Shown: one piece after another, positions 3,021 to 19,636 of the stretch
Numbering within the stretch: the first letter of the stretch is position 1
Layout of the letters: every line of letters starts with the position of its first letter
IMG/VR virus record: IMGVR_UViG_3300033463_000015
DNA from: a virus
Taxonomy: Duplodnaviria > Caudoviricetes
Length of the DNA stretch: 64,000 bases
Strand: one strand, 5' to 3'
Made by a program: the position numbers and the translations under genes
Notes under the pieces: model-generated
Told to the model about the DNA's origin: nothing
The model's input: the letters and a program-made list of their open reading frames with translations, nothing else
Database searches by the model: none

Positions 3021-3097
3021 GGCCTTGTAGCTCAGAAGAGTAGAGCGATAGCCTGTCACGCTATAGGTCGCGCGTTCAAGTCGCGTCAAGGTCGCCA
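3021..3097 (+). tRNA. tRNA-Asp(GTC)
   Basis: Cloverleaf with CTGTCAC loop, CCA. Confidence 0.9.
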
Positions 3098-3535
3098 TCG
3101 TCCAAGACAGTAAGGACATTAATCTACGCTGCGGCTATCCGTATGAACCAAGCTGATACGGTGCGTTACACTTTGGAAATGGAAAGTGGGGATAGGCAAA
3201 GACCAGACCCGAAAAGATAATGGGTGGCAGTAAGTGGAGTTCATATGAACATACCAGTAAGACCATACCAAAAGGAATAGGGACGCCGCTAACGGAATGT
3301 GAGGAAGGCCGTATAAAAGATTGCCTCACCGCGAAAGAGATTGTATGATGCACCCCTCACTTGGCCGCGAAGCGCTTAAAGAAAGTCGTGCATTACCGAA
3401 AGCAGATGAGCAACTGCGGGAACCATCCCAGATGGGATGCCGGTGCTCCAGTGAAAGTCTGGACGAGAACCAATAAAATGGCTCACAACGCGTTGGGGTT
3501 GTAGGTATATCCTCTCTATGGAGAAAAACCTTCTA
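3098..3535 (+). ncRNA. Unassigned ~440-nt noncoding RNA between tRNAs
   Basis: GC-enriched, no plus-strand ORF, bounded by tRNA-Asp and tRNA-Met. Confidence 0.45.
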
Positions 3536-3538
3536 TGA

Positions 3539-3613
3539 TGCGGCGAGGGCAAACGGTAAGCCAACTGGCTCATAACCAGTATATAGTGGGTTCAACTCCC
3601 ACCACCGCTACCA
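3539..3613 (+). tRNA. tRNA-Met(CAT), possibly initiator
   Basis: ACTGG-CTCATAA-CCAGT, 1:72 mismatch, CCA. Confidence 0.85.
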
Positions 3614-4510
3614 AAGCCTCAACCAACCGGCTTAGAATAGGTGGGTCGTGGATAAGCGCCGAATCGTAATTGGTGCTAGGGCGACAAGTAATCTTTAAAT
3701 GAGTGGTGCGAGTCCACAGCAATAGCAAAAGAGCGCGCTTTAAAGGTTATTGTTTCGACGGAAACTAGCCCCATAGTTAGTTCGTACACCTAACTATGTA
3801 TTTTAAGGGCAAAACAGGACTTCACGGCAAACTAAGCTCGTCAAAAAATGGGATGGACCGTGGCGCTGAAGAAAACTGCGTAACAAAAAGAGAAGGATGC
3901 CCGCTCAATAATAGGGTTCAAGGTGCCCAAATGCAAAGCAATGAGAAGGCTTTGAGGTGGGTCGTAACTAGCTAATACGATTTCATTGCTAAGAAGAATG
4001 GGTTAAATGGAGTTTGAAGAACAGCCAATGCGCAAACTGTATGGTTTAAGGGCATACACCAGATTGCTCGGCGCATTATAAAAGAAGAGCAAAGTAAGCA
4101 CACGGGATGGAAGGAAACGAGTTACGTCCTTACCGGCCCTGAGTAGTTGCGACGAAATGGGCGGGAGAAGCAGAAATAGTAACTGCACCCATAAATAGGC
4201 GAAAAACGAGAAAGAGAAGGAGAAGGCTCCGTTCAAACGGATTGATCACCGAAATTGAAGTAAGCGGAATAGGAAAGATGAAGTTCTACCGCCGACCGCT
4301 TCTCGTCACACAGTGTAGCCTATGTGCGTCCAAAGGCACATAAAAGAACGGCGGCGTAAATTACCGATGTTACAGGTAATCATATTGGAAAGCAGCAAGT
4401 TCGCCCAACAAGCGTGCGCACGCAAGATTGGGAACGGTCGGGACTGAGGATTGTGAGGATGCTGCTAGGCAATCTCACCCAGATGGGGTGGCTGGGTTAT
4501 CAAAACCCCT
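3614..4510 (+). ncRNA. Giant structured RNA, probable GOLLD
   Basis: ~900 nt purine-rich noncoding stretch between tRNAs; 3' part (GCCGACCGC...GGACTGAG...GGCAATCTCACCC) resembles the GOLLD 3' domain as recalled, not searched. Confidence 0.55.
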
Positions 4511-4515
4511 TTTAT

Positions 4516-4588
4516 GCCCTGCGTGGCAGCCGGTTTAAGCCGTTGGCCCTTCAAGCCAAAGTACCGAGTTCAACTCTCGGGCAGGGTA
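4516..4588 (+). tRNA. tRNA-Glu(TTC), atypical C33
   Basis: TTGGC-CCTTCAA-GCCAA. Confidence 0.75.
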
Positions 4589-4593
4589 CTTAT

Positions 4594-4665
4594 GTCCAGT
4601 TAGCATAATGGTTAGTGCGTCGCCCTCTCAAGGCGAGGATATGAGTTCGATTCTCGTACTGGGTA
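4594..4665 (+). tRNA. tRNA-Glu(CTC)
   Basis: TCGCC-CTCTCAA-GGCGA. Confidence 0.85.
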
Positions 4666-4748
4666 CTCTCACCTTAGCAAAAGCGGTGACTAAACCGATG
4701 TGCGGTTGGCTGACCTTAAAGCTATTTTTTATTATAGTGAGGGATTTT

Positions 4749-5732
4749 ATGCTAGATATTATCATTCCCGTCTACAATAATTAGCAAGGATTGACAGAAA
4801 CTTTATAGTCTATAAATCCCGCTATTATGAAGGATATTACAATTACAATTATAGATGATTGCTCTTCTGTACAATATGATGTAAAAACTATTCGTATGCC
4901 GCAGAATGGTGGCCCCGGAGCCGCACGCCAATATGGTATTAATCATACAATAGAACCATTTATTATGTTTGTAGATGCAGGAGATACTTTTGTTGATTTT
5001 GATTCGTAGTTAGAAATGATAGAAACAATAAAACATACAGATGCTTTATTTATTTCTTTTCTTCATAATACAATAAAAGAAGATGGTACAATTCGTCTTG
5101 AAAAGCATACTAACAATAGATTACACGGTAAAGTTTATCGTCGTAGCTTTTTAAATCAATATCACATAACATTTTGTTAGGGAAAAATTGGTTCATACGC
5201 CAATGAAGATATTGGCTTTAATTTTATATGTCATCATATATTAGAAGATAAAAATTTAGAAAATAAGTTTATATGTATAGATGTTCCATTAATTAATTGG
5301 ACTTATGATGAACAATCTCTTACTCATATAAATAATAATGCTTATGGATTTGTAAAATAGGTTCCTGGGCTTATTGAAAATACTCAACATATTGTAGAAG
5401 TATTAGAAGATAATGATTGTAATGCAGAAATAATTGCTAAAATATTATATAATATGCTAGGTAGATTATATACTGATTTTGTCAATGTTGCCGCATTTTG
5501 TCCAGAAAGAATTGATATTACTTGGAAACAATGTAGAACTTATTATCTCAATGATGTATTGCCCTACAAGGAATATAGAGACACTAATCTAAATAATATC
5601 TATATTGGCGGCTTTATGTATAGAGTAATGACTTGGAAGAAAAAAGTTCCAATAAATTATAATCGTTTTCTTCAAGAGTTAGAAAATTGTGAAAAAGCGC
5701 CAAAAAGATATTTTGAATTTTATCAATTATAA
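4749..5732 (+). CDS. Glycosyltransferase family 2; TAG=Gln
   Basis: MLDIIIPVYNN...IIDDCS...NGGPGAARQYG...FVDAGD motifs; fragments joined through TAG only. Confidence 0.85.
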
Positions 5733-5873
5733 TATTTGACTTTATTCAAAATTGTGATATAATATATATGAAAAGAGGGTAAGTTTTATGGAACTTACGG
5801 AGGATGAAAACCACTCCCGTCAAGATGTTGGCAGCAGCAAACACTTATGCGTAAGTAAAGGCAAACATCACAT

Positions 5874-5944
5874 AGCAGAGAGACGATTTGGTAATCGTGT
5901 GAGGGACGCCCACGTTGCGAGTTCAATTCTCGCCTCTGCTTTCA
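5874..5944 (+). ncRNA. tRNA-like RNA with truncated, non-canonical anticodon arm
   Basis: Acceptor AGCAGAG/CTCTGCT, D arm ACGA/TCGT, T arm GCGAG-TTCAATT-CTCGC; no 7-nt anticodon loop. Confidence 0.65.
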
Positions 5945-5960
5945 GCCATTTTGAGCATAT

Positions 5961-6034
5961 GCCCCGGTAGCTCAGTTGGTCAGAGCACGCGGCTGTTAAC
6001 CGCGGTGTCGTAGGTTCGAATCCTACCCGGGGCG
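5961..6034 (+). tRNA. tRNA-Asn(GTT)
   Basis: CGCGG-CTGTTAA-CCGCG. Confidence 0.9.
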
Positions 6035-6040
6035 CTTCAA

Positions 6041-6351
6041 CCACATAAAGCCTGAATTGACAGGATATGACTGGCCGGTTGAGGTCCGGCGGCAGTAATC
6101 GAATTAGAGAAGTCAATGTAAGTGACCCAATAAAATTACTGCGTCTCGTGAGCGACGACAGCTGTGGTGAGGTTCCGTATTGACCGAAAAGTATAAAATA
6201 ATAACATTGGTTAGGCTGGGCCAAGTAAAATAATTCGCACCGTTAACACGGATTTTGCGGTTAAACTACCACCGGCGCGAAACCCCCGCAGAGATAACTC
6301 TGCAATATGAGTATTCTTGAAACAAGAAGGCGGGTCAGTAGCGATATGTGG
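6041..6351 (+). ncRNA. Unassigned ~310-nt structured RNA
   Basis: Closing stem CCACATA/TATGTGG; internal hairpins GCAGTAAT/ATTACTGC and GCAGAG/CTCTGC. Confidence 0.5.
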
Positions 6352-6420
6352 CACGAAGGAGCGGAAAACGGTATACCCAAAGAAGCGAAGTAAACCGCAT
6401 TTCATTACAGGAGTGATACA

Positions 6421-7362
6421 ATGGGCGTATATACAGCAACTGATTTACGACAAATGTAGTCTTTACCATTAGAGGCTAAAATCGTAAAATCTCAAGAACG
6501 GATCAAAGAATATTATGATTACTTCAATGGTGAAGTATACGTATCATTTTCGGGCGGAAAGGACAGCACAGTTCTTCTTCATTTGGTAAGACAACTTTAT
6601 CCAGAAGTAAGAGCAATGTTTGTCGATACTGGACTTGAATACCCAGAAGTAAAAGAGTTCGTAAAGCAGCACGAAAATGTCAGTATTGTGCGGCCAGCAA
6701 AAACGTATAAGCAAGTTATTGAACGCTTTGGCTATCCAATGATTAGTAAAATGACTGCTAATTGTATCGCTACGGCTCGCCGCGATCCGAATTCAACTCG
6801 CGCAAAATATCTTACTGGAGAAATTCCAACAAAAGCATTTGGCTATGGCAATGGTCGATGGTGGCATATGGTAACAGATGCTCCATTCAACACAAGTGGT
6901 TATTGTTGTGAAGTAATGAAAAAACAACCTGCCCATAAATTCAATCGAGAAACTGGACTAGTTCCAATGATAGCTACATTGGCTGATGAATCAGTCAATC
7001 GGCGGCTGACTTGGTATAAAGAAGGTTGTAATAGTTTCAAAGGTAAGGATTCTCAAAGTAAGCCTTTATCATTCTGGACCGATCAGGATATATATCATTA
7101 TATAAAAGATAATAATATTCCTTATTGTCCTATATATGGTGATATTATAGAAAATGAAAAAGGCGAACTAGTAACAACTGGTGTTGAACGCACAGGTTGT
7201 ATCTTCTGCGGTTTCGGCGCGCATCTTGAAAAAGAACCTAATCGTTTCCAACAGCTAAAAGAAACCCATCCAAAATTGTGGGATTATTGTATGCGGCCAT
7301 TGGAAGAAAATGGATTAGGTATGCGTGAAGTTTGCGAATTTATGAAAATTCCAATTGAGTGA
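6421..7362 (+). CDS. PAPS-reductase family protein; TAG=Gln
   Basis: LRQM[TAG]SLPLEAKI, SFSGGKDS PP-loop, RTGCIFC. Confidence 0.85.
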
Positions 7363-7377
7363 GAAATCACTCTTTGA

Positions 7378-7451
7378 TGGCCCTTAGCTCATCAGGTTAG
7401 AGCAGCAGTCTTATAAACTGCAGGTGCTGGGTTCGACTCCCAGAGGGCCTA
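7378..7451 (+). tRNA. tRNA-Ile(TAT)
   Basis: GCAGT-CTTATAA-ACTGC. Confidence 0.85.
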
Positions 7452-7530
7452 CTATCAAATATTTGAAATATAGCAGTCAAATATTTGACTTTTCTCAAAA
7501 TTGTGCTATAATATATATGTAAACAAGGAA

Positions 7531-8117
7531 AGGAGATATTAGGTTAGTAAATTTTGAACCAAGTGAAGATGTGCTAACCACACAGCTTGGGCTATCCGTA
7601 TAGTAGCTGTCACTGCCCGAAGGATACTTTTGGTTAAACAGCCGCCAAAACAGCAATGTTAGGCGATAAAGGAGAAACTCCAAATACTAAGGATAGGCGC
7701 TTGGGTGTTCGCAATCAAAAGCACTTTTCCTCTCGGCTACATAATAGAAAGCTTGTTGAACAGACGAGCCGAATCCAGATAAGGCATTGGGGTGGTAGCC
7801 AATGCAAACTCTGGAAATACCATAAGTAGCTATCGGCGTTGATGAAAGCCGGAAACGGCATATAAGAGAGGTTTGTGGTGGGAGTAGGCCAAAGCGACGT
7901 ACAAGTAATATTGAATAAAAGAATTATTGAATATTGCTGAATGGTTTGGCTGAAACTTGAAGGTAGTCAATCCTTCCTACACACGGCGAAAGCGGATCGA
8001 AGAAGCTATGGGATCGCTACCTATGGCTCAGCCTTCGGTTCTGTAGTGGCTGAATATGATTGAAGAATTACTCGGGTACGGCGAAGGTCGCAACAGTTTA
8101 CTAACCTAATATCTCCT
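7531..8117 (+). ncRNA. ROOL-like large RNA
   Basis: 587 nt; long terminal stem AGGAGATATTAGGTTAGTAAA/TTTACTAACCTAATATCTCCT; own promoter 7485-7512; internal motifs (GAAGGTAGTCAATCCTT, GGATCGCTACC, GCTCAG, GTGGCTGAATA, GAAGGTCGC) match ROOL as recalled. Confidence 0.75.
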
Positions 8118-8142
8118 CTTTCTTTTTAACTAGGAGGCTTAT

Positions 8143-8604
8143 ATGAGACGAATTACTACAATTGTTCTTACGCTATGTTGCTTGCTAATGCCATTGGCCG
8201 CTCTGGGAGACAGTAGCCGTTCTCCTACATTAGATGCTTTATGGTACGCGGAACCAACACTACAGTTTCAGCTAATTAATAATATGGATGAATATGCTGA
8301 ATATCTAGAACTTATTTCAACCTATTATGACCTTGAGGGCTTCACAGAAATGGTTCTAGGAACAGATAAATTTCATATTGTTGATATGATTATCGTTACT
8401 TTAGACCAGACATATGGACGTGTTGTATGGCATACCCCCTATGGCTTTACAACTACTGATAATATCTGTGTCTTTATGATTTCTACGAATCTTTGGCAGG
8501 GATATGTAATGAATGCCAATGGTGATAGAAATGATAATCTAATTGTAAATTATAGTGAAGTGTCTCCGGGTACTTACTTTATGATTATCTATGCGGCTGA
8601 TTAA
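8143..8604 (+). CDS. Hypothetical secreted protein
   Basis: N-terminal signal-peptide-like segment, RBS. Confidence 0.65.
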   Translation: MRRITTIVLTLCCLLMPLAALGDSSRSPTLDALWYAEPTLQFQLINNMDEYAEYLELISTYYDLEGFTEMVLGTDKFHIVDMIIVTLDQTYGRVVWHTPYGFTTTDNICVFMISTNLWQGYVMNANGDRNDNLIVNYSEVSPGTYFMIIYAAD

Positions 8605-8636
8605 ATCAGTCGCGTTTTTTATTAGGAGTGAAAGAT

Positions 8637-9578
8637 ATGCCATTACCAGTATTATTTGCAGGAACAAGGCCACTTGGCAGAGCAGAAAATATTACCGCAT
8701 TATATGAGGCTTATTAGGGACTGAAAAAATATATTCAAGTTAGCGGAAGTAACGACCATCCAGAAATACGTTCTGGCAATTATAGAGTTTTAATTATTGA
8801 TGACTTTGGCTGTCGCAATCCTGGTAAATGTATTTTACTATGGCACGCTATTTAGGGCGGCAAATATATCGGTCTTAATTAGCCATTCCCTTATACTTCA
8901 TAGCAAAATATAAATAAAATTGATTATATTATTGCCGCAGGTGATGACGCTATTCCAATGTGGTAGCAATGTACTAATTTAGCCGCAGATAAAATTTTGC
9001 CGCTAGGAATGCCACGAACCGATTAGTTTATTGGCAAAACAAAAGGTGATGGGCATACATTATTGGCTAATAAAAAAGCTTATTTATATGCTCCTACTTT
9101 TAGACTTTCTAGTGAGCCATTATTCTTTTAGTTAGATTATGATTGGTTAGATAAACAATTAACTGATGATGAGATATTCGCAGTAAAAGCACATATGGTT
9201 GGAAAGAAAATTTTATCTAAAAAATATAATCATATTGTGGAAATCTCACAAAACGAGCCATCAACTCCATATTTATGTGATTGTGATGTTGTAATAACTG
9301 ATTATAGCAGCATTATATTTGATGGCTATTTACTAAATAAACCTGCTATTTTATTTGAAAAAAGTAGCGGTTATGCCGCTAGCCGTGGAATGTATATGAA
9401 TTATCCTAATGAGTATTGTTCTAAATATGCGACTAATGAATAGGAGTTATTAGATTTATTACGTTCTACTAATGAACTTACAGAAGTAGAAAGAAAATGT
9501 ATTCAACGAGTAGCGAATAAATGCGATGGAAATTCTTGCCAGCGCATTTGTGAACTAATTAAAAAGTTGAATTTTTAA
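8637..9578 (+). CDS. CDP-glycerol glycerophosphotransferase (TagF/TagB-like); TAG=Gln
   Basis: WHA, LGMPRTD, YLYAPTFR and DVVITDYSSIIFD motifs; open except for TAGs. Confidence 0.85.
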
Positions 9579-9678
9579 AATAATTTTACTTGACTTTTCC
9601 CAAAATTATAGTATAATATAATTGTACCAAAGGGAAATGGTGCCGATATAGCTCAGTAGGTAGGTGCGTCTCCTTGGT

Positions 9679-10163
9679 TTGAAAATCTGCTTTATTATGC
9701 TTCTTTTGGGAGGATGATAAAATGGAATTAAATACCAAACAAAAAGGTAATATTACTGAAATGCAATGTGCCGTTGCTTTTATGTAGCAAGGATACAAAG
9801 TTAGCTTTCCATATGGTGAAGATTGTAAATATGATATGATTGTAGATACTGGTAAACATTTATATCGAGTACAATGTAAAACTTCATCTAAATTACCAAA
9901 TTCAGAAGAAGGATTTAAATTTAAAACTAGATCAACTGTAATTACAACTCATGGAGTAAAAACATCTGGATATTCACAAGAAGAAATAGATGTATTTGCT
10001 ACAATGTACGAAGGTCAATGCTATGTAATATCTGTAAAAGATTGTGGCGTAAATGAAAAAATTTTACGTTTCCAATATCCTAAAAATGGTCAGCATAAAG
10101 GCATTACCTTAGCTGTAGATTACAAATTGGAGCAAACTAAAGCATTTGAGTGATTTTTAAACA
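9679..10163 (+). mobile_element. Endonuclease-carrying tRNA insert with no group I core
   Basis: Ends pair (TTGAAAATC/GATTTTTAA, TGCTTT/AAAGCA); only ~43 and ~10 nt flank the ORF. Confidence 0.7.
9722..10153 (+). CDS. PD-(D/E)XK homing endonuclease (I-Ssp6803I-like); TAG=Gln
   Basis: TKQKGNITE...PYGEDCKYDMIVD...RVQCKT motif. Confidence 0.85.
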
Positions 10164-10206
10164 AAGGAGAAGGTCCCCAGTTCAAATCTGGGTATCGGCT
10201 TCATAT

Positions 10207-10279
10207 GGGGCCATAGTGATAATGGTTAGCACTACTGCCTTGCAAGCAGTGAGTCGGGGTTCGATTCCCCGTGGCTCCA
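10207..10279 (+). tRNA. tRNA-Ala(TGC)
   Basis: Cloverleaf, G3:U70. Confidence 0.9.
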
Positions 10280-10283
10280 CTTT

Positions 10284-10357
10284 CGGGATGTAGCACAGTT
10301 GGTTAGTGCAGCGCTCTGATAAGGCGAAGACCGATGGTTCAAGTCCATCCATCCCGA
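10284..10357 (+). tRNA. tRNA-Ile(GAT)
   Basis: CTGATAA loop. Confidence 0.85.
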
Positions 10358-10363
10358 TTTTAT

Positions 10364-10439
10364 GCGAGGTTAGCTCAGTTGGGAGAGCATCACGTTTACA
10401 CCGTGAGGGTCGGCGGTTCGAGCCCGTCACTTCGCACCA
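10364..10439 (+). tRNA. tRNA-Val(TAC)
   Basis: TTTACAC loop, CCA. Confidence 0.9.
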
Positions 10440-10630
10440 GGCCAATGTAGCTACCGATAAGGAACTATGTCGAAAGAAAAGGCTCCGGAGATGTTCAGTA
10501 GGTTGAGCTCCAGAAATCAAACCTGCAGCCACAATAACCGTTGCTACGCGGGAAAATTGGACGCCCTTTAAAGTTGTTCGCGGTAGTGTGAATAACCTTC
10601 GCCACGGCGAAGTAAAATAGCCGTGGAAAT

Positions 10631-10705
10631 GCGCCATTAGTCTAAGGGATAGAACGAGTGGCTACGGACCACTAGATACGCGTTCGAGTCGTGTATGGCG
10701 TGCCA
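10631..10705 (+). tRNA. tRNA-Arg(ACG)
   Basis: CTACGGA loop, CCA. Confidence 0.9.
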
Positions 10706-10708
10706 TAT

Positions 10709-11061
10709 GGGGTAGTTTTGGTTTCGACAGGTTATGAATGGTATTGAAATCACGGGTAGGCGGCGCACCTTACGCAGCAAACAATTGAACTGACAACGAT
10801 TATTTCTATAGCGAACTAAAGGCTGCTTAATTGCAGTTTCGCGCCTAAACAACAAACCTGCTAATCGGTAAATGTTTGCGGTTCAGAGATAGATTAGTAG
10901 ATTGGCTTCGGGCCAGCTGGTCTTCTCTATTCACAGTCCAACGAATAGAGTGGTGGAAGGATCATTCCCAGTTTGTCAGAACTTAAAACTGACTATCGTG
11001 TAAGTAATTTTCAATATTGGTTGTAGCTTGGACAGGGGTTCAACTCCCCTCTACTCCACCA
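10709..11061 (+). ncRNA. ssrA: tmRNA; tag (A)DNDYFYSELKAA*
   Basis: GGGGTAG...GGTTTCGAC 5' end, T arm and CTACTCC-ACCA 3' end with G3:U; tag ORF 10792-10830 ends in AA. Confidence 0.92.
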
Positions 11062-11064
11062 TAT

Positions 11065-11150
11065 GCGTCGGTGTGTCCAGTGGCGAAGGCAGCGGACTGT
11101 AAATCCGTTACAAAGAAACATCGGTGGTTCGACTCCACCCCGGCGCACCA
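11065..11150 (+). tRNA. tRNA-Tyr(GTA)
   Basis: CTGTAAA loop, long variable arm, CCA. Confidence 0.9.
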
Positions 11151-11153
11151 TAT

Positions 11154-11226
11154 GCTCTGATAGCTCAGTTGGTAGAGCAGTAGACTGAAAATCTACGTGT
11201 GGGTAGTTCAATTCTACCTCAGAGCA
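11154..11226 (+). tRNA. tRNA-Phe(GAA)
   Basis: GTAGA-CTGAAAA-TCTAC. Confidence 0.9.
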
Positions 11227-11234
11227 TTATATAA

Positions 11235-11305
11235 GTTCCATTGGCCTATCGGTGGGGCACGACACTTTTAATGTCGGGAGACAGGTTCAACTCCTGTATG
11301 GGACA
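11235..11305 (+). tRNA. tRNA-Lys(TTT)
   Basis: CGACA-CTTTTAA-TGTCG. Confidence 0.85.
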
Positions 11306-11389
11306 CTTGAGGTAGCGTTGGAGTAATTAACCAACGAGATAATGCGCTCTCCCGCAAGCTCATATAAATTATCAGGAGAGTGATAATAT

Positions 11390-11818
11390 ATGGAGAATAC
11401 TAAAACAAAAGGACAAATTTCTGAAGCAAGAGTTTTATATGAATTTTAGAAGTATCATATACCAGTTTGTCTTCCTTGGGGAGATAATGAACGTTATGAT
11501 ATGGTTGCTGAATTTGATGGTAAATTTAATCGTATTCAAATAAAAACAGCTAATTAGGAAGAAAACGGTGCTGTATGCTGTTGGGCAAGAAGCTCAACAA
11601 ATCACACAACTAATAAAAAATTATCATCATATGAAAATGATGTTGATTACTTTGTCTTTGTTAATCAAACAAGGGACTGGCTAGCACTTGTGCCTATTGA
11701 AGAATTAAATGGGCAGAAAAGCATACGATTACGAATTAATCCACCATTAAATACTAATGGTAAAACTATAAGGTATTTTTCTGACTTCACATTTGATAAA
11801 AAATTTAATTCTCATTAA
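11390..11818 (+). CDS. Free-standing PD-(D/E)XK homing endonuclease; TAG=Gln (absent from ORF track)
   Basis: MENTKTKGQISE...PWGDNERYDMVAE...RIQIKT; paralogous to 9722-10153. Confidence 0.85.
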
Positions 11819-11837
11819 AATAAAAAGGAGAAAAAAT

Positions 11838-12005
11838 ATGCCAAAGGTAGGAGACAAAGTTCGTATTCTTTTTATGAGTGGTGAATCTCAGTATACTGGT
11901 CGTGTAGGTATCGTCAAATTCATTGATGATATGGGTTATATCCACGGAACTTGGGGCGGTTGTGCGCTAATTCCGGGAGAAGATGAATGGGAGATTATTG
12001 AATAA
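11838..12005 (+). CDS. Small protein (DUF4314-like)
   Basis: KVGDKVRI...G.V.FIDD.G.IH..W pattern. Confidence 0.6.
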   Translation: MPKVGDKVRILFMSGESQYTGRVGIVKFIDDMGYIHGTWGGCALIPGEDEWEIIE

Positions 12006-12016
12006 TCTCCCTATAT

Positions 12017-12090
12017 AGGGGTATCGTTCAACGGTAGGACTACTGACTCCAAATCAGCCAATCTGTGTTCAAATCGCAGTACCCCTGCCA
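12017..12090 (+). tRNA. tRNA-Trp(CCA)
   Basis: CTCCAAA loop, CCA. Confidence 0.9.
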
Positions 12091-12093
12091 TAT

Positions 12094-12168
12094 GCATATG
12101 ATGCTCGTCGGCCGGGTGGCGGCCTGCAAAGCCGCTGTTAGTAGGTTCAACTCCTACCATATGCTCCA
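12094..12168 (+). tRNA. tRNA-Cys(GCA)
   Basis: GCGGC-CTGCAAA-GCCGC, U73. Confidence 0.85.
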
Positions 12169-12267
12169 GATGGAGCCATTACGCTCAAGAGTTAGTATCA
12201 GCTGCTACGGCTCAAAGAGTAAAACAGATATTGCAAATAATGATGGTAAAGGCACTCCTCACCATAT

Positions 12268-12339
12268 GCCCCATTAGCTCAACGGACAGAGCCCGCGCCT
12301 TCTAAGCGCGTCATATATGTTCGACTCATATATGGGGTA
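12268..12339 (+). tRNA. tRNA-Arg(TCT)
   Basis: CGCGC-CTTCTAA-GCGCG. Confidence 0.9.
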
Positions 12340-12382
12340 CTAAGCCGCAAGGCTAAAAATAAAATAAAAGAGGTAAAAATAT

Positions 12383-12922
12383 ATGGCAGATACAAGACTA
12401 AAGATTCTACCACCTTGGACTATTGCTATTAGAAAGCTAGAAGCTCTATTTGATGGAGACCCACAGATTGCTTTTAATTGCGATTTCTCTGGTTCCCATC
12501 CAACTGTAGTTCTATCCTGTAATAATGGCGATAAGGTTACAGCACTACTTCAGATTCTTCCAGAAGAAATTAACTTTGGCAATGTTAGCCTAAAGGTTGT
12601 TGTTGATGGCACGCCAAGCAATCGTGCTTTCACCAGCAAGGTCGAGCTATTTGATGTAGCTTTCAAGGGCAATCCTTCTTATGCTTATTCCGTATGCCCT
12701 GTTGAGGAAGGCTATCAGTGGTTTGACACTACTTATGTAGTATTTAACAACTGTGTAGTACAGTTCGCGGCTGACAATCTAAACGATTGCCACGGCGTTA
12801 TCAGCACACTATATGAAACCATTGCTGATGAACTTCTAACTGGCCCCGCAACCGCTGGTGTATACTATAACACTAATGTTGAACGCGCCAATCTTGGCAT
12901 GCCTCTTGGCGAGTGGCCATAA
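12383..12922 (+). CDS. Hypothetical protein
   Basis: 179-aa ORF with RBS. Confidence 0.7.
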   Translation: MADTRLKILPPWTIAIRKLEALFDGDPQIAFNCDFSGSHPTVVLSCNNGDKVTALLQILPEEINFGNVSLKVVVDGTPSNRAFTSKVELFDVAFKGNPSYAYSVCPVEEGYQWFDTTYVVFNNCVVQFAADNLNDCHGVISTLYETIADELLTGPATAGVYYNTNVERANLGMPLGEWP

Positions 12923-12929
12923 TCCTTAA

Positions 12930-13056
12930 AATGCGGTGGCGGAATAGGTAGACGTCGTAGTTCCAAATCACAGGCTGAGTCGTAAAGGGACGAATAAAAC
13001 TGGCGAGCGAGAGCTGCCTGATCTCGTATGCGAGGTGCAAATCCTCGCCCGCATTA
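12930..13056 (+). ncRNA. tRNA-like RNA with an expanded domain replacing the anticodon arm
   Basis: Acceptor AATGCGG/CCGCATT, Leu-type D arm, GCGAGG-TGCAAAT-CCTCGC; ~75-nt branched central domain. Confidence 0.6.
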
Positions 13057-13057
13057 T

Positions 13058-13130
13058 GCCGAATTAGCTCAATTGGCTAGAGCCACCGCCTTGTAAGCGG
13101 TAGATACGGGTCCGAGTCCCGAATTCGGCT
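13058..13130 (+). tRNA. tRNA-Thr(TGT)
   Basis: ACCGC-CTTGTAA-GCGGT. Confidence 0.88.
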
Positions 13131-13151
13131 TTCAATTTTAGGAGGCATAAT

Positions 13152-13649
13152 ATGTTTGATATTGAAGAAAATAAGCGTCTCTGCGACACATATCCCTTCC
13201 TTATTCCCTTCAATCGCTTCAGCGGCAAGCGTATTAACTGTGGCGAAAAAGGTTACTGGCCCGGTAATCCTGATGAGTATCCGCCAGAATGGAACTATGA
13301 ATATACAGAACTTGATGATATGCCAGATGGATGGCGTGATGCTTTTGGTGAACAATTGTGCTTTGAAATTAAACAAGCTTTGCTTGATGAAGGTGGCGAA
13401 AAGCTTCTTGATGAGTATCGCGTTGACCAAATTAAAGAAAAATATGGCACTTTAAGATGGTATGATAATTTTAGCACCAAACGCATTCAAGATATTCTTG
13501 AAAAATATGAAAATTTAAGTGCTCGCACTTGTATTAAATGCGGCAAGCCTGCTACTAAATTAAGCCGCGGGTGGATTGCCCCTTGGTGTGATGAATGCGG
13601 CAATGATGAAGATGAAGCGTATATGAGTTTAGACAATGCTTTTATTTGA
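13152..13649 (+). CDS. Conserved phage hypothetical protein with C-terminal Zn ribbon
   Basis: QIKEKYGTLRWY...TCIKCG...WCDEC. Confidence 0.75.
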   Translation: MFDIEENKRLCDTYPFLIPFNRFSGKRINCGEKGYWPGNPDEYPPEWNYEYTELDDMPDGWRDAFGEQLCFEIKQALLDEGGEKLLDEYRVDQIKEKYGTLRWYDNFSTKRIQDILEKYENLSARTCIKCGKPATKLSRGWIAPWCDECGNDEDEAYMSLDNAFI

Positions 13650-13789
13650 CTTTTGATAAAAAATTTGATATAATATATATAGAAAGTAGGAAATCAGCGA
13701 GTTCTCCCACGAATAAAGTTAGCGCTGTAAAGGGTGGGAACGGTAGGCAGATAGAAGTTGTGAGGTCGCTGATAGGCAACAGATGAAAT

Positions 13790-14052
13790 AGCCCCGTAGT
13801 TGAATGGTACAACACCGGTCTCTAGCCTTAATTGGAGCCTTATATGGAGACGTATAAGTGAAAATGCCGCTAATTCGGTGAAAGCTTAACTGCTAACCCC
13901 GAGCAAGGAGAAATCCGTGTGTAGAGACTTTACACGGCACATCTAGAACAGATGAAGATAAAGTCCGGACCACGATGTGAAAACAATGTGGTGAAGAAAA
14001 CCGTAATATCCCTCTGACGGAGGTTGTCTGGGTTCGAATCCCAGCGGGGCCG
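13790..14052 (+). tRNA. Amber suppressor tRNA(CUA), intron-containing
   Basis: Exons 13790-13823 and 13997-14052 give CCGGT-CTCTAAA-ACCG; long variable arm. Confidence 0.85.
13824..13996 (+). mobile_element. Compact group I intron (173 nt)
   Basis: U.G pair at 5' splice site (CTCT/GGAG), P3 TGCCG/CGGCA, P4 TTCGG/CCGAG, P7 GACTTTA/TAAAGTC, terminal G. Confidence 0.88.
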
Positions 14053-14054
14053 TC

Positions 14055-14203
14055 GCGACACTGTAGGCTTAGAAGTAGCCATCAGCTAAAGAGTTTATAT
14101 GCCTCCATTCGTGCGAAATGTATTATGGGCTACAAAAATTGTCCTATAAGTATGATGTGCGGTGGACAAAAGGTAAAATAATTTGGTGTAATAACACAGT
14201 CGC
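14055..14203 (+). ncRNA. 23S rRNA H43/H44 (uL11-binding) mimic RNA
   Basis: TGTAGGCTTAGAAGTAGCCATCAGCTAAAGAGT...GTGTAATAAC closed by GCGAC/GTCGC. Confidence 0.7.
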
Positions 14204-14233
14204 ATTTTAGAAGCGTGAAAACGCTTCTTGTAT

Positions 14234-14367
14234 CTGGGTGTAGCGCAGTTTGGTAGCGCATCAGATTTGAAAATCTAGCATAACGGTAATGCTTTATATC
14301 AGAGTTCGATTCTCTGGATTTTCACGGGATCTGAGGGTCGTGAGTTCAAATCTCACCACCCAGACCA
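14234..14367 (+). tRNA. tRNA-Pro (TGG or CGG) with a 57-nt tRNA-like insert in the anticodon loop
   Basis: CTGGGTG/CACCCAG-ACCA, TCAGA/TCTGA anticodon stem; insert ~14269-14325. Confidence 0.85.
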
Positions 14368-14535
14368 ACAGGATGGCATGAAACCTGTCACAATCTGCAT
14401 AGCTGAGTGTAGATAAAAACATGCCTATCAGCATTTAGCGCCGTTGGGAACCTTATGGTGGAAGAGCCCTACAAGAAAGAGGCCGAGTAGTATCCGCAAC
14501 TCTTCCGGCGCATTTTTTTATTAAAAGGAGAAAAT

Positions 14536-14946
14536 ATGATAGCAAATATTTGTGAGCATTGCCAACACTTTTTAGAAGATCAAGCAGAATATCATTATTG
14601 CCATGTATGTAATATGGATCATAGTTGTTTTTTACTAAAAAACAAAGAAAAAGTTTTTTATCGTGTAATTACATTTTGTAATTTACCAAAAGAAGATGAC
14701 AATTTTCCACCAGACTATGACACACCAGCTTATTATGAAAATAAAGATGATGCTATTCAATGTGTAAAAGAAAATTGCTGTGATATTTATGAGGGTAGCT
14801 ATCCAGCCGCAATGGTAATTGAAACTGGATTTGGATGCTATCCATATTGCCCCAATCGTTGGTACTTTGAATGGGAAGGCGATTGGAGAACTGGTAAGTA
14901 TGTGCAAAAAGAAGAACCTAAATCATTGGAGCATTGGGGACTATGA
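14536..14946 (+). CDS. Cys-rich hypothetical protein
   Basis: ORF with RBS. Confidence 0.65.
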   Translation: MIANICEHCQHFLEDQAEYHYCHVCNMDHSCFLLKNKEKVFYRVITFCNLPKEDDNFPPDYDTPAYYENKDDAIQCVKENCCDIYEGSYPAAMVIETGFGCYPYCPNRWYFEWEGDWRTGKYVQKEEPKSLEHWGL

Positions 14947-14958
14947 AAGGAGATAATT

Positions 14959-15321
14959 ATGGGATACTATACTAGTTATAATCTTGATGTAAAAGGCGTT
15001 GAAAATAAAGAAAGATTTGAAGAATTGCAAAATGCACTAAAACAAATTGGCGTTATATACTATGCTTTAGATAGTGGTGAATATTTAGAGAAAATTAAAC
15101 TTGCTTCATTTTATACTTATGATTCTGCAAAATGGTATGAATATAATGATGATATGAAAAATCTTTCACTTATTTTTCCTAAATTTCTTTTCTGTCTCGA
15201 AGGAGTGGGAGAAGATTGGGATGATAGATGGCGTGCATATTATCATTATGGAGAAAGTGAATTTTGCCCTGCTCAAATTATATTTAAAGAACCAGAACGA
15301 ATTAAATGGAGCGAAGAATGA
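14959..15321 (+). CDS. Phage hypothetical protein
   Basis: MGYYT...KWYE...LEGVGED, RBS. Confidence 0.7.
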   Translation: MGYYTSYNLDVKGVENKERFEELQNALKQIGVIYYALDSGEYLEKIKLASFYTYDSAKWYEYNDDMKNLSLIFPKFLFCLEGVGEDWDDRWRAYYHYGESEFCPAQIIFKEPERIKWSEE

Positions 15322-15761
15322 AAATTTACACTTCTTATTGGGCTATGGTACGTCATTTTCCTACCAATCTTATTGGTTTAAATACTACAATTTGGCCTCC
15401 TAAATGGCGGCCACTAGGTAAAGACGCAAGAGGTGTCATTGTTATAGACTGCCCGCCCCTTAAACCCGGAGCCGCGTGTGAAGGTTTATGTAATGGAAAA
15501 TGTAGCCCTAAACATCCACAAGATTGTGAGTTTCTAAATGTATATCAGCGGCAACTAGATGAAATTGATTTTAATCAATTTATGAACTCATTACAAAAAT
15601 TACACGATAAGATTTGTGCTGAAGAAGGATTTGAGGATGTAGATTTTGCTCTCATTGTATATGAGACACCGCAGAATCATTGTAGCGAGCGTTTGCCACT
15701 ATGGATATGGCTTCAAATGAATGGTATTGAACCTCAGGAATTTAACAAAAGTAGTATTTGA
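15318..15761 (+). CDS. Hypothetical protein (DUF488-like)
   Basis: MKIYTSYW...YETP..HCSER. Confidence 0.55.
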   Translation: MKIYTSYWAMVRHFPTNLIGLNTTIWPPKWRPLGKDARGVIVIDCPPLKPGAACEGLCNGKCSPKHPQDCEFLNVYQRQLDEIDFNQFMNSLQKLHDKICAEEGFEDVDFALIVYETPQNHCSERLPLWIWLQMNGIEPQEFNKSSI

Positions 15762-15815
15762 CAATTATAAAAATTATGATATAATATAATTGAACAAAAG
15801 GAAAGGAGCATTTAT

Positions 15816-16399
15816 ATGAAGCCTAGGGTAATCAAGAATCGCATCGAGTTTAATCTGTATCCTGATGAGGATAGCTATCAGCAGGCTGTAAGTCTTGGTT
15901 TTGATGTAGATCAGGATATGCCGCTTGAAGCGCTTCATCGTATGTGCCGTTATTTTGCGCTATGTCTAGGTTTTGCAGAATCTAGCGTAGATGAGATGTT
16001 CGGTGAAGAAAGTTATAATGACCTCTGTTGATATTGACCGACTCTTTAAAGATTTAATTAATTATTGGGGTACAGCTCCATTTGGATTTGTACTCGCGGC
16101 AATCGCAGACGCAGAACAAGCGTGGGAAGAAGAAAACTACGATCGCATTGTAGAATGGGCAGTACAAGAAGGATTTAATTTGGAGGATTATTATGTTTAA
16201 GTATAAGGTTCATTACTGGGATGAAGTTGAAAATAAGAATCTTGATGATACTGGTCTTGTCGCCGCAAAGTCTTGGGGCAAAGCAGTCGAAAAGGTTCGG
16301 GAATATTATGGGCCTAAGAATGTATATAGTATTACCGTTGAGGAATGGGATGAAGTTGTATATGCTGAAGAGGTTCTTAATGGACTAACTGAAGAGTAA
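15816..16399 (+). CDS. Three small acidic hypothetical ORFs (15816-16031, ~16018-16200, 16193-16399)
   Basis: Overlapping ORFs after promoter 15758-15785. Confidence 0.6.
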
Positions 16400-16419
16400 T
16401 CGCGGCGAAAGCCGCATAT

Positions 16420-16705
16420 GCGGGTATGGCGGAATAGGCAGACGCCACAGACTTTAATAAAAAGAGCACTAGAATAGGAAACTTTCTGAGTGAATGCTGG
16501 CTAATTCGGTGAAAGTCCTTATGGGATAACGCCGAGCTAAATGGTTTAAAACCTAAATGTGTAGAGACTATATACCAGCCACCTAAATCATAAGATATGG
16601 TGAAGACATAGTCCAGACTACAACGTGTAAGCGGCCATAGTAATATGGAGTAGTAGGAAAATCTGTTGCCCTCTGGGCGTGCCGGTTCAAGTCCGGCTAC
16701 CCGTA
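16420..16705 (+). tRNA. tRNA-Leu(TAA), intron-containing
   Basis: Exons 16420-16454 and 16658-16705 give ACAGA-CTTAAAA-TCTGT. Confidence 0.9.
16455..16657 (+). mobile_element. Group I intron (203 nt)
   Basis: AATTCGGTGAAA, GTAGAGACTAT and ATAGTCC core; inserted after U34 as in cyanobacterial tRNA-Leu(UAA) introns. Confidence 0.9.
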
Positions 16706-16756
16706 CTTATAATCAAAACACCTCCCTTTCTCTACGCGGCGGAAACGCCGCATTAT

Positions 16757-16844
16757 GCCCTCGTGCCGCAGCTAGTGAGACGGGGTAGTCTCAAAAACTA
16801 CTACACAAGAAACATCGTGGGCGCACATCCCACCGAGGGTACCA
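16757..16844 (+). tRNA. tRNA-Leu(CAA), atypical T loop
   Basis: GTAGT-CTCAAAA-ACTAC, T loop CGCACAT, CCA. Confidence 0.75.
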
Positions 16845-16918
16845 GTGGCTTTTAGAACAAAAGAGGTTAGCCTGCGCAAGAACCCATATGTCGTTGCGGT
16901 GACGTGAAGCCGCACCAC

Positions 16919-16989
16919 GCACCATTAGTGTAATGGCAACATTCCTGCCTTCCAAGCAGTAGTTGGCGGTTCAAATCCGCTATGGTGCT
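16919..16989 (+). tRNA. tRNA-Gly(TCC)
   Basis: CTTCCAA loop. Confidence 0.88.
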
Positions 16990-16990
16990 T

Positions 16991-17250
16991 TGGGGAGGAG
17001 TTAAAAGCGTCCTCTCTCTGGTGCAATGCGGTAATACCTGTATACGGGTCCCAAAAGTTACCCTACCAGTAGTTAGAAGTCTGTAAAACTTCCATTGGGC
17101 TGGCTGAGAGGCCCGGGTCCACCTTGTAGGTTTCGCTTGACCGCAGGGGATGTATTCCCGAAACAAGCATTTAATATTATAAGCTGCCGACGCCTCTGCT
17201 GACGAGCAAGCGTACCACGGGGCAATGGGCTCGTTAATAACCTCCTCAAA
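16991..17250 (+). ncRNA. Unassigned ~260-nt structured RNA
   Basis: Closing stem TGGGGAGG/CCTCCTCA, GC-rich internal hairpins. Confidence 0.5.
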
Positions 17251-17366
17251 ACCGAGGAAGTAGGTACCTTGAGCCCTTCATTAATCAATAGGAGTCTTGA
17301 GCGGTTATTAGACTTAATACTCAACCGACCGATCGTACGCGGCAAAACAAATCCTATTGACGTTAT

Positions 17367-17453
17367 GCAGATGTGGCTGAGTGGTCTAAAGCAGCGGTTT
17401 GCTAAACCGTCGTACTTTCATCGGTACCGAAGGTTCAAATCCTTCCATCTGCG
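17367..17453 (+). tRNA. tRNA-Ser(GCT)
   Basis: TTGCTAA loop, long variable arm. Confidence 0.9.
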
Positions 17454-17471
17454 CTTTAAGGAGATGATTCT

Positions 17472-17735
17472 ATGGAAAATAAAGAAAATACTTCGATGTT
17501 AGAGGGATGGCGTTGCCCTTAGTGTGGAGCAGTAATGTCTCCATTTGTACGTAGCTGTGTAAATTGTGTTGGTAAATCTTCGCCTACAGTTGTTCAACCA
17601 AATACGACTACTCCATTAACTGAGCCATATCCATCTACAACTACACCTATATATGAAGAAGTTCCTTGGTGGATAACATACAATAGACCAATTACTATTA
17701 CTTGTGAAACAAAACCAGTTCAATGCTGGTTGTAA
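17472..17735 (+). CDS. Small Zn-ribbon protein; TAG=Gln
   Basis: GWRCP[TAG]CGAVMSP...CVNC. Confidence 0.7.
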
Positions 17736-17741
17736 AGGAGA

Positions 17742-17984
17742 ATGATTATGGATAGATTACGTATTCGTATTTTAAGCCAGAATGATGTAGTCTCGCTAGT
17801 AAATAGTCTAAATACTTGGACTGATAAGTTTATTCTTGAAAGTGAAGATGGCACTTATAGAGTAAATGCCAAGAGCGTTCTTGGTGTTCTTTACTTTGTG
17901 TCTGAACACCCAATGGATACTTATCTTATAAATATGACTAGCGGCGGCTACTACCCTGATGGTGCTATGCGTTTTCGCTTTTGA
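17742..17984 (+). CDS. HPr-like protein
   Basis: RVNAKSVLGV (Ser46 region); no His15 equivalent. Confidence 0.7.
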   Translation: MIMDRLRIRILSQNDVVSLVNSLNTWTDKFILESEDGTYRVNAKSVLGVLYFVSEHPMDTYLINMTSGGYYPDGAMRFRF

Positions 17985-17997
17985 AAGCGCAATTTAA

Positions 17998-18069
17998 TGA
18001 GGATTCGTATAACGGCGAGTACACACGGCTTTGACCCGGGTAGCGATGGTTCGATTCCATCATCCTCAG
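17998..18069 (+). tRNA. tRNA-Gln(TTG)
   Basis: CTTTGAC loop, U1:A72. Confidence 0.88.
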
Positions 18070-18074
18070 CTTAT

Positions 18075-18163
18075 GGGCATGTGGCCGAGTGGTTTAAGGC
18101 GGCGGTCTTGAAAACCGTTGATGTGATGAACATCCGTGGGTTCAAATCCTACCGTGCCCGTCA
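18075..18163 (+). tRNA. tRNA-Ser(TGA)
   Basis: CTTGAAA loop, long variable arm. Confidence 0.9.
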
Positions 18164-18475: not shown

Positions 18476-18961
18476 ATGCCTACATTGTATATTATGTGCG
18501 GTATTCCGGGGTCTGGTAAAACTTATTTTGCACGGAATTTTCTTCGTGCAGATGTAACAGTATCTCGTGATAATATTCGTTTCATGATGCTGGATGATAA
18601 TGAACAGTATTTTGACCATGAGGCTGAAGTATTTAACGAATTTGTAAAAACTCTTGTGCATCATCTTCATCATTTTGAAACAGTGGTAGCGGATGCGACT
18701 CATCTCAACATCTGGTCACGTAAAAAGCTTACAAATGCTATTGACAAATATATTACGGATTATCGCATCGTATATGTGGTATGCGCTCCTTCACTACAGG
18801 TATGCCTCTATCGTAACAGCAAGCGCACTGGCCGTTCTCGAGTACCAGACGAAATCGTAAAAGAAATGGCCGACAAATTTCATCCGCCCGTAACTGACGC
18901 TTATAAATTGGAAGATGAGCGAGCAGTAGGAGTTTGGTGGATTAATGGCGAACCAAAATGA
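18476..18961 (+). CDS. Polynucleotide-kinase-like P-loop protein (AAA_33)
   Basis: CGIPGSGKT, SRDNIR, VADATHL. Confidence 0.85.
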   Translation: MPTLYIMCGIPGSGKTYFARNFLRADVTVSRDNIRFMMLDDNEQYFDHEAEVFNEFVKTLVHHLHHFETVVADATHLNIWSRKKLTNAIDKYITDYRIVYVVCAPSLQVCLYRNSKRTGRSRVPDEIVKEMADKFHPPVTDAYKLEDERAVGVWWINGEPK

Positions 18962-19572
18962 ATAACATTTGGTTTACAAGCGATACACATTTCTTTCACG
19001 AGCAATCATTCATTTACGAACCTCGCGGTTTTACTACCACTATGGAAATGAATGAAGCGATAGTAGAACGATGGAACGAGGTAGTCCAAGAAGAAGATAC
19101 TGTCTATCATCTCGGCGATGTATTAATGGGACATTATGATGTTAATATCCTAAAAAGACTAAACGGTAATATATTTTTAATTCGCGGCAATCACGATACA
19201 TTGCAGAAAATTAGCGACATCTACGAAACTGGCAAGGTAACTAATATTATACACACTAGCGAACTTTTAAAGTTCGGCAAACTAAATTTCTTTTGTTGCC
19301 ATTATCCAGTTCTTACTGCTAATTTTGATGATAAGCATTTTTCGCAGCATATTATTTCCCTACATGGTCATTCACATCAAACTTCTAACTGGCTATTTCC
19401 TGAAAACCCATTTATTTATCATGTTGGACTTGATTCGCACGATTGTAAGCCTGTTCATCTAGACGAAATTACTACGGATATACGAAATAGATGGAATCAA
19501 TTAGGCTAGCTTCCAATCATGTTAAATAAAGATTATCATAAAAATTTCACCTCCGAAGAAAGTCAAGATTAA
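18958..19572 (+). CDS. Calcineurin-like metallophosphoesterase; TAG read through to TAA 19572
   Basis: SDTH, HLGD, RGNHD, LHGHSH. Confidence 0.85.
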
Positions 19573-19636
19573 TTTCTTGACTTTTTTTAAATTTATAGTA
19601 TAATATAAATGTAAAGAGGAAAGGGGAGATTATAGG

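Follow-up and report, generated by a model that had tools for sequence, protein, structure and literature searches.

The 64,000-nucleotide stretch of viral DNA analyzed here (hereafter the window) corresponds to bases 25383-89382 of a 101,447-bp IMG/VR viral contig, which is designated G000 among the phages compared, and carries a tRNA-Thr(GGU) gene and a tRNA-Pro gene that are each interrupted within the anticodon loop by an insert, 485 nt and 57 nt in length, respectively. That this bacterial virus carries two tRNA introns without a ribozyme was well supported by the analyses described below. As to how they leave the RNA, we consider the chances to be about even that both inserts are RNA-level introns mimicking an acceptor stem, which would be cut by tRNA end-processing enzymes and sealed by the phage Rnl5-type RNA ligase.

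Two tRNA genes with inserts in the anticodon loop

An original prediction made from the sequence alone had located an anticodon-loop interruption in both genes, and each of them indeed folded into a normal cloverleaf once its insert was taken out (Table 1). For tRNA-Thr(GGU), an intronless homologue was found in a complete related phage, G003 (L054:14680-14755, minus strand), and this allele aligned with the 5' half of the window gene through nucleotide 36 and with the 3' half from nucleotide 37, thereby setting the splice site between these two nucleotides. In the predicted fold of the insert, 9679-9687 pair with 10152-10160 to form helix 1, leaving a short 3' tail, ACA (10161-10163), two nucleotides of which pair with G35 and U36, while 9688-9695 pair with 10137-10144 to form helix 2. 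The non-coding part of the intron amounts to approximately 53 nt, with 43 nt on the 5' side and 10 nt on the 3' side of an open reading frame (ORF). In agreement with the prediction that the long insert carries an endonuclease, the ORF product gave a full-length match to PF11645 (97.2 bits, profile positions 2-137 of 138) and a match to PDB 2OST (E 1.6e-4). The single in-frame TAG codon of this ORF aligned with Gln in four of seven homologues, indicating that the endonuclease gene is intact under the code used by the phage. The pair of alleles, intronless in G003 and intron-bearing in G000, was consistent with homing by the predicted endonuclease.

A protein search identified 65 close homologues of the endonuclease (43-83% identity), and the DNA context was examined for eleven of them. 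Seven distinct homologues (63-83% identity) were located inside tRNA-Thr(GGU) at exactly the same position as the window copy, and the tRNA bodies surrounding them were widely divergent; another, at 51% identity, interrupted tRNA-Arg(UCU) (L058). Free-standing homologues were also found, one at 47% identity and two viral-contig relatives at 41%. The window copy and the seven Thr(GGU) variants were then aligned for pair counting. Across these eight sequences, pairing in the four tRNA stems amounted to 97%, both partners having changed in 15 pairs, and helix 1 comprised 11 pairs, running from exon G35 and U36 through the first nine intron nucleotides, with two compensatory pairs and one further position alternating between G.U and A.C. 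Helix 2, formed by 9688-9695 with the last codons of the ORF, showed one compensatory pair. None of the shuffled alignments or slid registers came near the observed pairing values. The terminal A of the intron (10163) was present in all eight variants. In addition, the codons read by the GGU anticodon (ACU and ACC) make up 60% of the Thr codons of the phage. This codon usage, together with the covariation in the stems and helices, argues that the tRNA is under selection and that the intron has to leave the RNA; judged from the alignment, the Thr intron must be removed at the RNA level, since dead genes would not be expected to keep such covariation. Homologous inserts with conserved ends, which the original prediction had required of relatives, were thus found at the same site, and the decay of the tRNA halves that would have spoken for simple inactivation was not seen. 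When viral contigs were scanned with a pattern for the 3' exon of tRNA-Thr, no match was obtained. Adjoining the Thr intron in L017 (2654-3402; also in L018 and L019), a further split tRNA (Met/CAU according to ARAGORN) is interrupted by a 673-nt insert that encodes a 202-aa protein without a Pfam match.

The register of the tRNA-Pro insert was ambiguous by one nucleotide, giving the anticodon UGG, or CGG if both cuts are placed one position to the left. Since the intronless relatives of this tRNA, identified by body homology, have UGG, and CCA and CCU are much commoner in the phage than CCG, the register 14269-14325 was favored. The insert alone (14269-14324) matched the Rfam tRNA model RF00005 from end to end (42.5 bits against a cut-off of 29, E 1.2e-8). 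It consists of an acceptor stem (14269-14275 with 14317-14323), a D arm (14278-14292), a linker (14293-14299), and a T arm (14300-14316), followed by the discriminator A (14324) and then C (14325), and the 18 model positions of the anticodon arm are replaced by 3 nt. Because this arm is missing, the insert, as read from its predicted fold, is a tRNA mimic and not a decoding tRNA.

The same 57-nt intron was present in the same tRNA-Pro of G001, a related phage from another sample whose neighboring genes are 70-93% identical to those of the window phage at the protein level. The two copies of the intron differ by three substitutions, which affect the D loop and, in the T loop, positions 57 and 59, all variable among real tRNAs, and the T stem of the outer tRNA-Pro underwent one compensatory change between G000 and G001 with the intron retained. 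The interrupted gene is the sole tRNA-Pro in both phages, and the tRNA-Pro genes of more distant relatives are intronless. The Pro insert, searched in viral contigs as an exact pattern, gave no match, and a looser pattern (a D arm and a T loop without an anticodon arm) returned mostly ordinary tRNAs and no new members of the Pro intron family. The looser pattern also yielded three free-standing tRNA-like elements having acceptor, D, and T arms and lacking the anticodon arm, which lie in unrelated phage contigs (L059:3000-3060, L060:355-410, and L063:2553-2610), one of them within a tRNA array.

The original prediction had further held that neither insert is a group I intron, unlike the introns of two neighboring tRNA genes, and the Rfam searches confirmed this. 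With the group I model (RF00028), no match was obtained in the Thr region (9642-10214) at E values up to 10 or in the Pro region (14266-14328), where tRNA was the only Rfam match. The neighboring introns served as positive controls: that of tRNA-Leu(UAA) (16445-16630) scored 65.5 bits, and that of an amber-suppressor tRNA (13812-13990) scored 40.7 bits when its region was searched alone. Neither insert contained a group II intron or a small self-cleaving ribozyme in Rfam searches at E values up to 5-10, and the 4227 Rfam families gave no match in either except tRNA in the Pro insert. The omega-G of group I introns is also lacking, the Thr intron ending in A (10163) and the Pro intron in C (14325), or in A (14324) in the other register. 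Furthermore, a catalytic core takes about 150 nt or more of non-coding sequence, against the ~53 nt available in Thr and the 57 nt in all in Pro. A ribozyme hidden in the Thr ORF was rejected as unlikely, because synonymous sites vary along the entire ORF among the eight homologues with no suppression of synonymous change.

A bulge-helix-bulge motif, that is, a 4-bp helix flanked by two 3-nt bulges, one in each strand, appeared in neither fold: in the Pro fold a single 3-nt bulge was present, confined to the 3' strand, and in the Thr fold nothing more than a 1x1 G/A mismatch. No PF01974 splicing endonuclease was detected in the 101-kb record, and among the control genomes it was found in archaea only; likewise, the phage DNA searched contained no archaeal-type splicing endonuclease, RtcB, or metallo-beta-lactamase nuclease. 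Cutting of a bulge-helix-bulge by EndA was thus rejected, the motif being absent from the folds and PF01974 from the record. RNase III was also ruled out, as the Thr-type cuts are offset by 3-4 bp instead of leaving a 2-nt 3' overhang.

Table 1. Coordinates of the interrupted tRNA genes and associated features in the window
Feature	Position	Strand	Remarks
tRNA-Thr(GGU) 5' exon	9642-9678	+	Nucleotides 1-36
Thr intron	9679-10163	+	485 nt, without ribozyme; last nucleotide A
Predicted homing-endonuclease ORF	9722-10153	+	143 aa; PD-(D/E)XK family PF11645; one in-frame TAG at 9785-9787
tRNA-Thr(GGU) 3' exon	10164-10200	+	Nucleotide 37 to discriminator
tRNA-Pro 5' exon	14234-14268	+	Ends at U34
Pro intron	14269-14325	+	57 nt, tRNA-shaped
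tRNA-Pro 3' exon	14326-14367	+	From G35; body to 14364, then encoded CCA
Putative sigma-70-type promoter	9590-9617	+	TTGACT, 16-nt spacer, TATAAT; 11 of 12 consensus matches; ahead of the tRNA operon starting with tRNA-Thr
ROOL RNA	7535-8110		Within the tRNA array; full-length, 332 bits
tmRNA	10709-11061		Within the tRNA array
P-loop kinase (AAA_33)	18476-18961	+	PF13671, E 2.6e-20; candidate for 5'-end healing
Calcineurin-like phosphoesterase	18958-19572	+	PF00149, E 1.3e-7; candidate for 3'-end healing
ATP-dependent RNA ligase, Rnl5 (Naegleria gruberi) type	20992-22212	+	PF21189 N-terminal OB and PF09414 nucleotidyltransferase; PDB 5cot, E 1.5e-28

Kinship of the two inserts and introns of related phages

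The two inserts had been proposed to form one family, of which the short one would be a minimal form. Several of the likenesses on which this proposal was based were verified. The 11-mer UUUGAAAAUCU occurs three times in the window against an expectation of 0.16, and two of the copies lie exactly at the 5' junctions (9678 and 14266). The third copy (34872-34882) is in a coding region distant from the tRNAs and looks like a chance match. The folds of both inserts contained the GAAAAUC/GAUUUUY closing helix, which is 7-11 bp long and prolongs the anticodon stem, and the octamer UGCUUUAU was present in both (9688-9695 and 14290-14297). The roles of the octamer differ, however, as in Thr it forms one side of helix 2, and in Pro it supplies a strand of the D stem and the linker. 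The 3' ends necessarily resemble each other, since they have to pair with the same 5' strand, and in a local-alignment shuffle test the two 5' ends gave p ~0.003, with several unrelated segments of the genome scoring as high. Only the positional coincidence of the 11-mer carries weight for kinship at the sequence level.

The insertion sites differ, namely 36/37 in Thr and 34/35 (or 33/34) in Pro, and direct derivation of one insert from the other is hence without support; moreover, G001 has the Pro intron and no Thr gene at all. The notion of one family was accordingly retained only in part: the inserts share the architecture of an end helix with a short 3' tail and the sequence of the 5' strand, but not the site. 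The idea that the short insert is a reduced version of the long one did not stand, since the acceptor, D, and T arms of the former make it a complete tRNA mimic, and we do not accept a simple series from a full-length to a minimal form. What is common to both is thus the architecture, with the helix sequence possibly shared or exchanged.

Interrupted tRNAs of related phages, which were found through a neighboring gene and through the endonuclease, further informed the position of the cuts. The body around G007 i49 was identified as tRNA-Asn(GUU), with a score of 44 versus 22 for the next best, and that around G002 i135 as tRNA-Ile(GAU). These correct identities were obtained only with the cuts before the inner +1 and after the 4-nt tail (GCAA and ACCA, respectively), which places the cuts in both at the ends of the inner tRNA. 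The default placement of ARAGORN, which mis-assigned several anticodons here, wrongly gave Thr(GGU) for the former (L053:7749-7871) and Met(CAU) for the latter (G002:23854-24065; L043:3854-4065), and introns of this kind would account for the many phage tRNAs that standard tRNA finders miss or assign wrongly. In G002, the 135-nt inner element was not recognized as a tRNA by Rfam; it was read as tRNA-like by inspection, which revealed an acceptor helix, a T hairpin, and an ACCA end. The inner element of G006 i76 (L051:4039-4114) is a complete 76-nt tRNA (47.8 bits) with the anticodon CUA and an encoded CCA, ending in ACCA, and is a possible suppressor tRNA nested in the anticodon loop of another tRNA. 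By the same boundary rule the outer tRNA would be Ile(UAU), body homology being not decisive. The endonuclease-bearing introns of G002 (in tRNA-Pro and tRNA-Lys) and L058 (in tRNA-Arg) all fit the site 36/37 and have a 3' tail complementary to the anticodon. A structure-anchored pattern search of the Joint Genome Institute (JGI) metagenomes returned only two chance matches, in a coding region, and megablast of 9000-15000 against GenBank phages gave no match.

Possible routes of excision and sealing

Judging from these features, excision by proteins followed by ligation seems the most economical route. The operon would be transcribed from the promoter at 9590-9617, which was recognized by consensus match only. 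In the common design, the first intron nucleotides pair near the 3' end and leave a short 3' tail, which is AC in the Pro and ACA in the Thr intron; the former comprises the whole top half of a tRNA, while the latter has only the helix, the tail, and a second helix. RNase P would then cut at the base of the helix, generating the 5' splice site, and an RNase Z-type or other endonuclease would cut after the tail, generating the 3' splice site; the latter cut is the least secure step, above all in Thr. The minimal substrate geometry for bacterial RNase P working with an external guide sequence is likewise an acceptor-like helix that carries a 3' tail, and for this reason the Thr intron, although it lacks a T arm, could still be cleaved at its 5' site. 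After the cuts, the tRNA body would hold both halves together, and the phage Rnl5-type ligase would seal the 3'-OH/5'-phosphate nick in the anticodon loop. If the ends were instead a cyclic phosphate and a 5'-OH, the neighboring kinase and phosphoesterase might allow the same sealing. The predicted PD-(D/E)XK endonuclease would make the Thr intron mobile at the DNA level.

The original prediction had named a phage RNA ligase as the sealing enzyme, and the gene was indeed identified as such, 6.6 kb 3' of tRNA-Pro (Table 1). Members of the Rnl5 family join 3'-OH to 5'-phosphate ends in nicked duplexes. An ATP-dependent RNA ligase was found in G000, G001, and G006, and a T4 Rnl1-type ligase in G007.

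Several observations weigh against excision by tRNA end-processing enzymes followed by sealing with this ligase. The ligase also occurs in G003, where no such intron was found in the regions examined, and was not clearly found in G002, which carries three such introns; the ligase is thus at best a general repair enzyme and not specific to intron-bearing phages. In Pro, canonical cuts by RNase P before G+1 and by RNase Z after the discriminator would leave an 8-nt loop, so one of the cuts would have to be shifted by one nucleotide, either the 3' cut past the discriminator or the 5' cut to -1. The Thr intron lacks a T arm and offers no obvious handle for RNase Z, and a hairpin-type substrate would have to be tolerated there by RNase P. 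In the endonuclease-bearing forms, the complementarity of the tail to the anticodon might just as well be used by a ruler-type nuclease measuring from the tRNA body. Furthermore, the endonuclease-bearing introns examined here all fit 36/37 and the tRNA-shaped ones at 34/35 to 35/36, a difference that hints at two mechanisms, and the body identities of G006 i44 and i76 were not decisive. Taken in its full extent, the proposal that the intron imitates an acceptor end, that RNase P and a 3'-end endonuclease excise it, that the phage ligase rejoins the halves, that the endonuclease-bearing versions carry the design from one tRNA gene to another, and that in some relatives the excised introns are working tRNAs is put forward tentatively, as a possibility less likely than not; it would amount to a third mode of tRNA splicing, used by phages of bacteria.

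It is rather unlikely, though deserving serious consideration, that a dedicated, unrecognized nuclease of the phage or host cleaves the extended anticodon helix in both strands at distances gauged from the tRNA body, in the manner of the eukaryotic splicing endonuclease, leaving cyclic-phosphate and 5'-OH ends that are healed and ligated. One candidate would be the intron-encoded PD-(D/E)XK protein, the archaeal splicing endonuclease having a fold related to PD-(D/E)XK. The clustering of kinase, phosphoesterase, and ligase at 18476-22212 is in line with such a nuclease, as are the constant fit of the endonuclease-bearing introns to 36/37 whatever their helix sequence, the pairing of their 3' tails with the anticodon, and the missing T arm of the Thr intron that RNase Z would need. 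Nevertheless, no dedicated nuclease was identified, PF01974 being absent from the phage DNA searched, and the searched parts of G001, G006, and G007, all of which have tRNA-shaped introns, contained no PF11645 gene; nor does either the Thr or the Pro fold display a bulge-helix-bulge. The heal-and-seal cluster is also not specific here, since such clusters are common in phages, where they serve repair against anticodon nucleases.

It is very improbable that the inserts are never removed, so that two dispensable tRNA genes are inactivated or the inner tRNA-like RNA is the only functional product. The gene for tRNA-Thr(GGU) is dispensable in at least one relative, as G001 lacks it, a second Thr tRNA (UGU) is encoded in the window at 13058-13130, and other phages have free-standing tRNA-like elements that lack the anticodon arm. 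Inactivated genes are, however, difficult to reconcile with the 15 compensatory exon-stem pairs and 97% pairing of the eight intron-bearing variants, with the covariation of the helix formed by the intron ends, with the reading of the commonest Thr codons of the phage by GGU, and with the split tRNA-Pro being the only one in G000 and G001. Least probable of all is self-splicing by a small unrecognized ribozyme or trans-splicing by the group I ribozymes of neighboring tRNA genes, to which the presence, within this tRNA array, of two group I introns that look active and the conserved G.U/A.C wobble 3 nt inside the Thr 5' splice site lend some color, but which conflicts with the lack of any Rfam match (4227 families) other than tRNA and of a terminal G, with the ~53 nt of non-coding sequence in Thr and the tiny single-stranded junctions in Pro, with the unsuppressed synonymous change in the ORF, and with the occurrence of such introns in several tRNAs of unrelated sequence in G006 and G007.

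Genomic setting and comparison with known systems

The 101,447-bp contig was estimated by CheckV to be 57% complete. TAG is a sense codon in many, but not all, genes of the phage, with TGA and TAA remaining stops: long frames contain 5 to 48 in-frame TAGs, those of ~1900 codons 36-48 (e.g., window 62731-76064, minus strand), and 8628-9578 is a further recoded example, in contrast to the RNA ligase gene, which has none. Approximately 25 tRNA genes lie on the plus strand within an array at 2257-18162, and the presence of tmRNA and ROOL RNA there indicates that the host is bacterial. With its intron option, ARAGORN reported four interrupted tRNAs (9642-10200, 13789-14054, 14234-14367, and 16420-16706). 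One of these (13789-14054) is an amber-suppressor tRNA with the anticodon CUA and a long variable arm, split by a 173-nt group I intron, and its homologue in G001 (L005:974-1064) is intronless. As the intron sits in the suppressor tRNA, the reading of TAG in the window phage may depend on a splicing step. The promoter ahead of tRNA-Thr is also found immediately 5' of tRNA-Ala in G001, which has no Thr gene, and the region 5' of tRNA-Thr (9584-9635) is a repeated phage promoter element with eight similar copies in G001. A second PF11645 endonuclease gene (11390-11818; 98 bits, two in-frame TAGs) is free-standing between tRNA-Lys and tRNA-Trp, and free-standing PF11645 homologues come after tRNA-Lys in L003 and after tRNA-Thr in L004.

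To our knowledge, bacteria and their viruses have been thought to possess only self-splicing tRNA introns, protein splicing being an archaeal and eukaryotic hallmark. Ribozyme-less mobile tRNA introns in phages, if the present reading is correct, would overturn this division, and tRNA end-processing enzymes and phage RNA ligases would gain a programmed role beyond repair. If the excised intron is itself a working tRNA, as the inner tRNA of G006 with its amber-suppressor anticodon may be, one gene would yield two tRNAs, and maturation of the outer tRNA would depend on expression of the phage ligase. The window links both intron designs in one genome and, with two group I introns as internal controls and candidate healing and sealing genes, would offer a test bed.

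Among known systems, the tRNA-fMet group I intron of Synechocystis (I-Ssp6803I, PF11645, PDB 2OST) resembles the Thr intron in its anticodon-loop location and in carrying a PD-(D/E)XK endonuclease of the same family. There, however, the endonuclease resides in a self-splicing group I ribozyme, whereas the Thr intron has neither the core nor the terminal G. The tRNA introns of archaea and eukaryotes, processed by EndA or TSEN and then by RtcB or Trl1, are similar in their anticodon-loop site, in the pairing with the anticodon that extends the stem, in having no catalytic RNA, and in the succession of an endonuclease and a ligase that is proposed here, but differ in their bulge-helix-bulge, in being located at 37/38 instead of 36/37 or 34/35, and in that the host here is bacterial.

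In the maturation of mascRNA from MALAT1 and with RNase P external guide sequences, tRNA end-processing enzymes cut a larger RNA at a tRNA-like fold, and the Pro and Thr introns are comparable in that a tRNA-like fold or an acceptor-like helix would direct cutting. The flanking pieces are not rejoined in those cases, unlike the phage tRNA halves, which must be ligated. Such resealing of a break in the anticodon loop by a phage kinase/phosphatase and ligase is the essence of T4-type tRNA repair (Pnkp and Rnl1), and similar genes are present at 18476-22212; in T4, however, a damaged host tRNA is restored, whereas the break proposed here would belong to the normal maturation program of tRNAs that the phage itself encodes.

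The original prediction knew of no described phage intron class of this kind, a claim that held only in part, as 'enigmatic' tRNA introns have been reported in Lak megaphages with no mechanism given, one of them, in tRNA-Thr(UGU), being predicted to contain a tRNA of its own (Devoto et al., 2019, Nat Microbiol, PMC6784885). Our search of the published literature found nothing closer, and the class of ribozyme-less phage tRNA introns, whose splicing chemistry we infer, thus appears essentially undescribed in print. Like the introns of the window, those of Lak phages occur in TAG-recoding phages, coexist with intronless alleles, belong to no Rfam class, and include one that folds as a tRNA. They belong, however, to another phage lineage and are likened here by description only, not by sequence. 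The endonuclease-bearing form, the analysis of the end helix, and the covariation described here are features that set the present introns apart from that account (PMC6784885), which contains none of the three.

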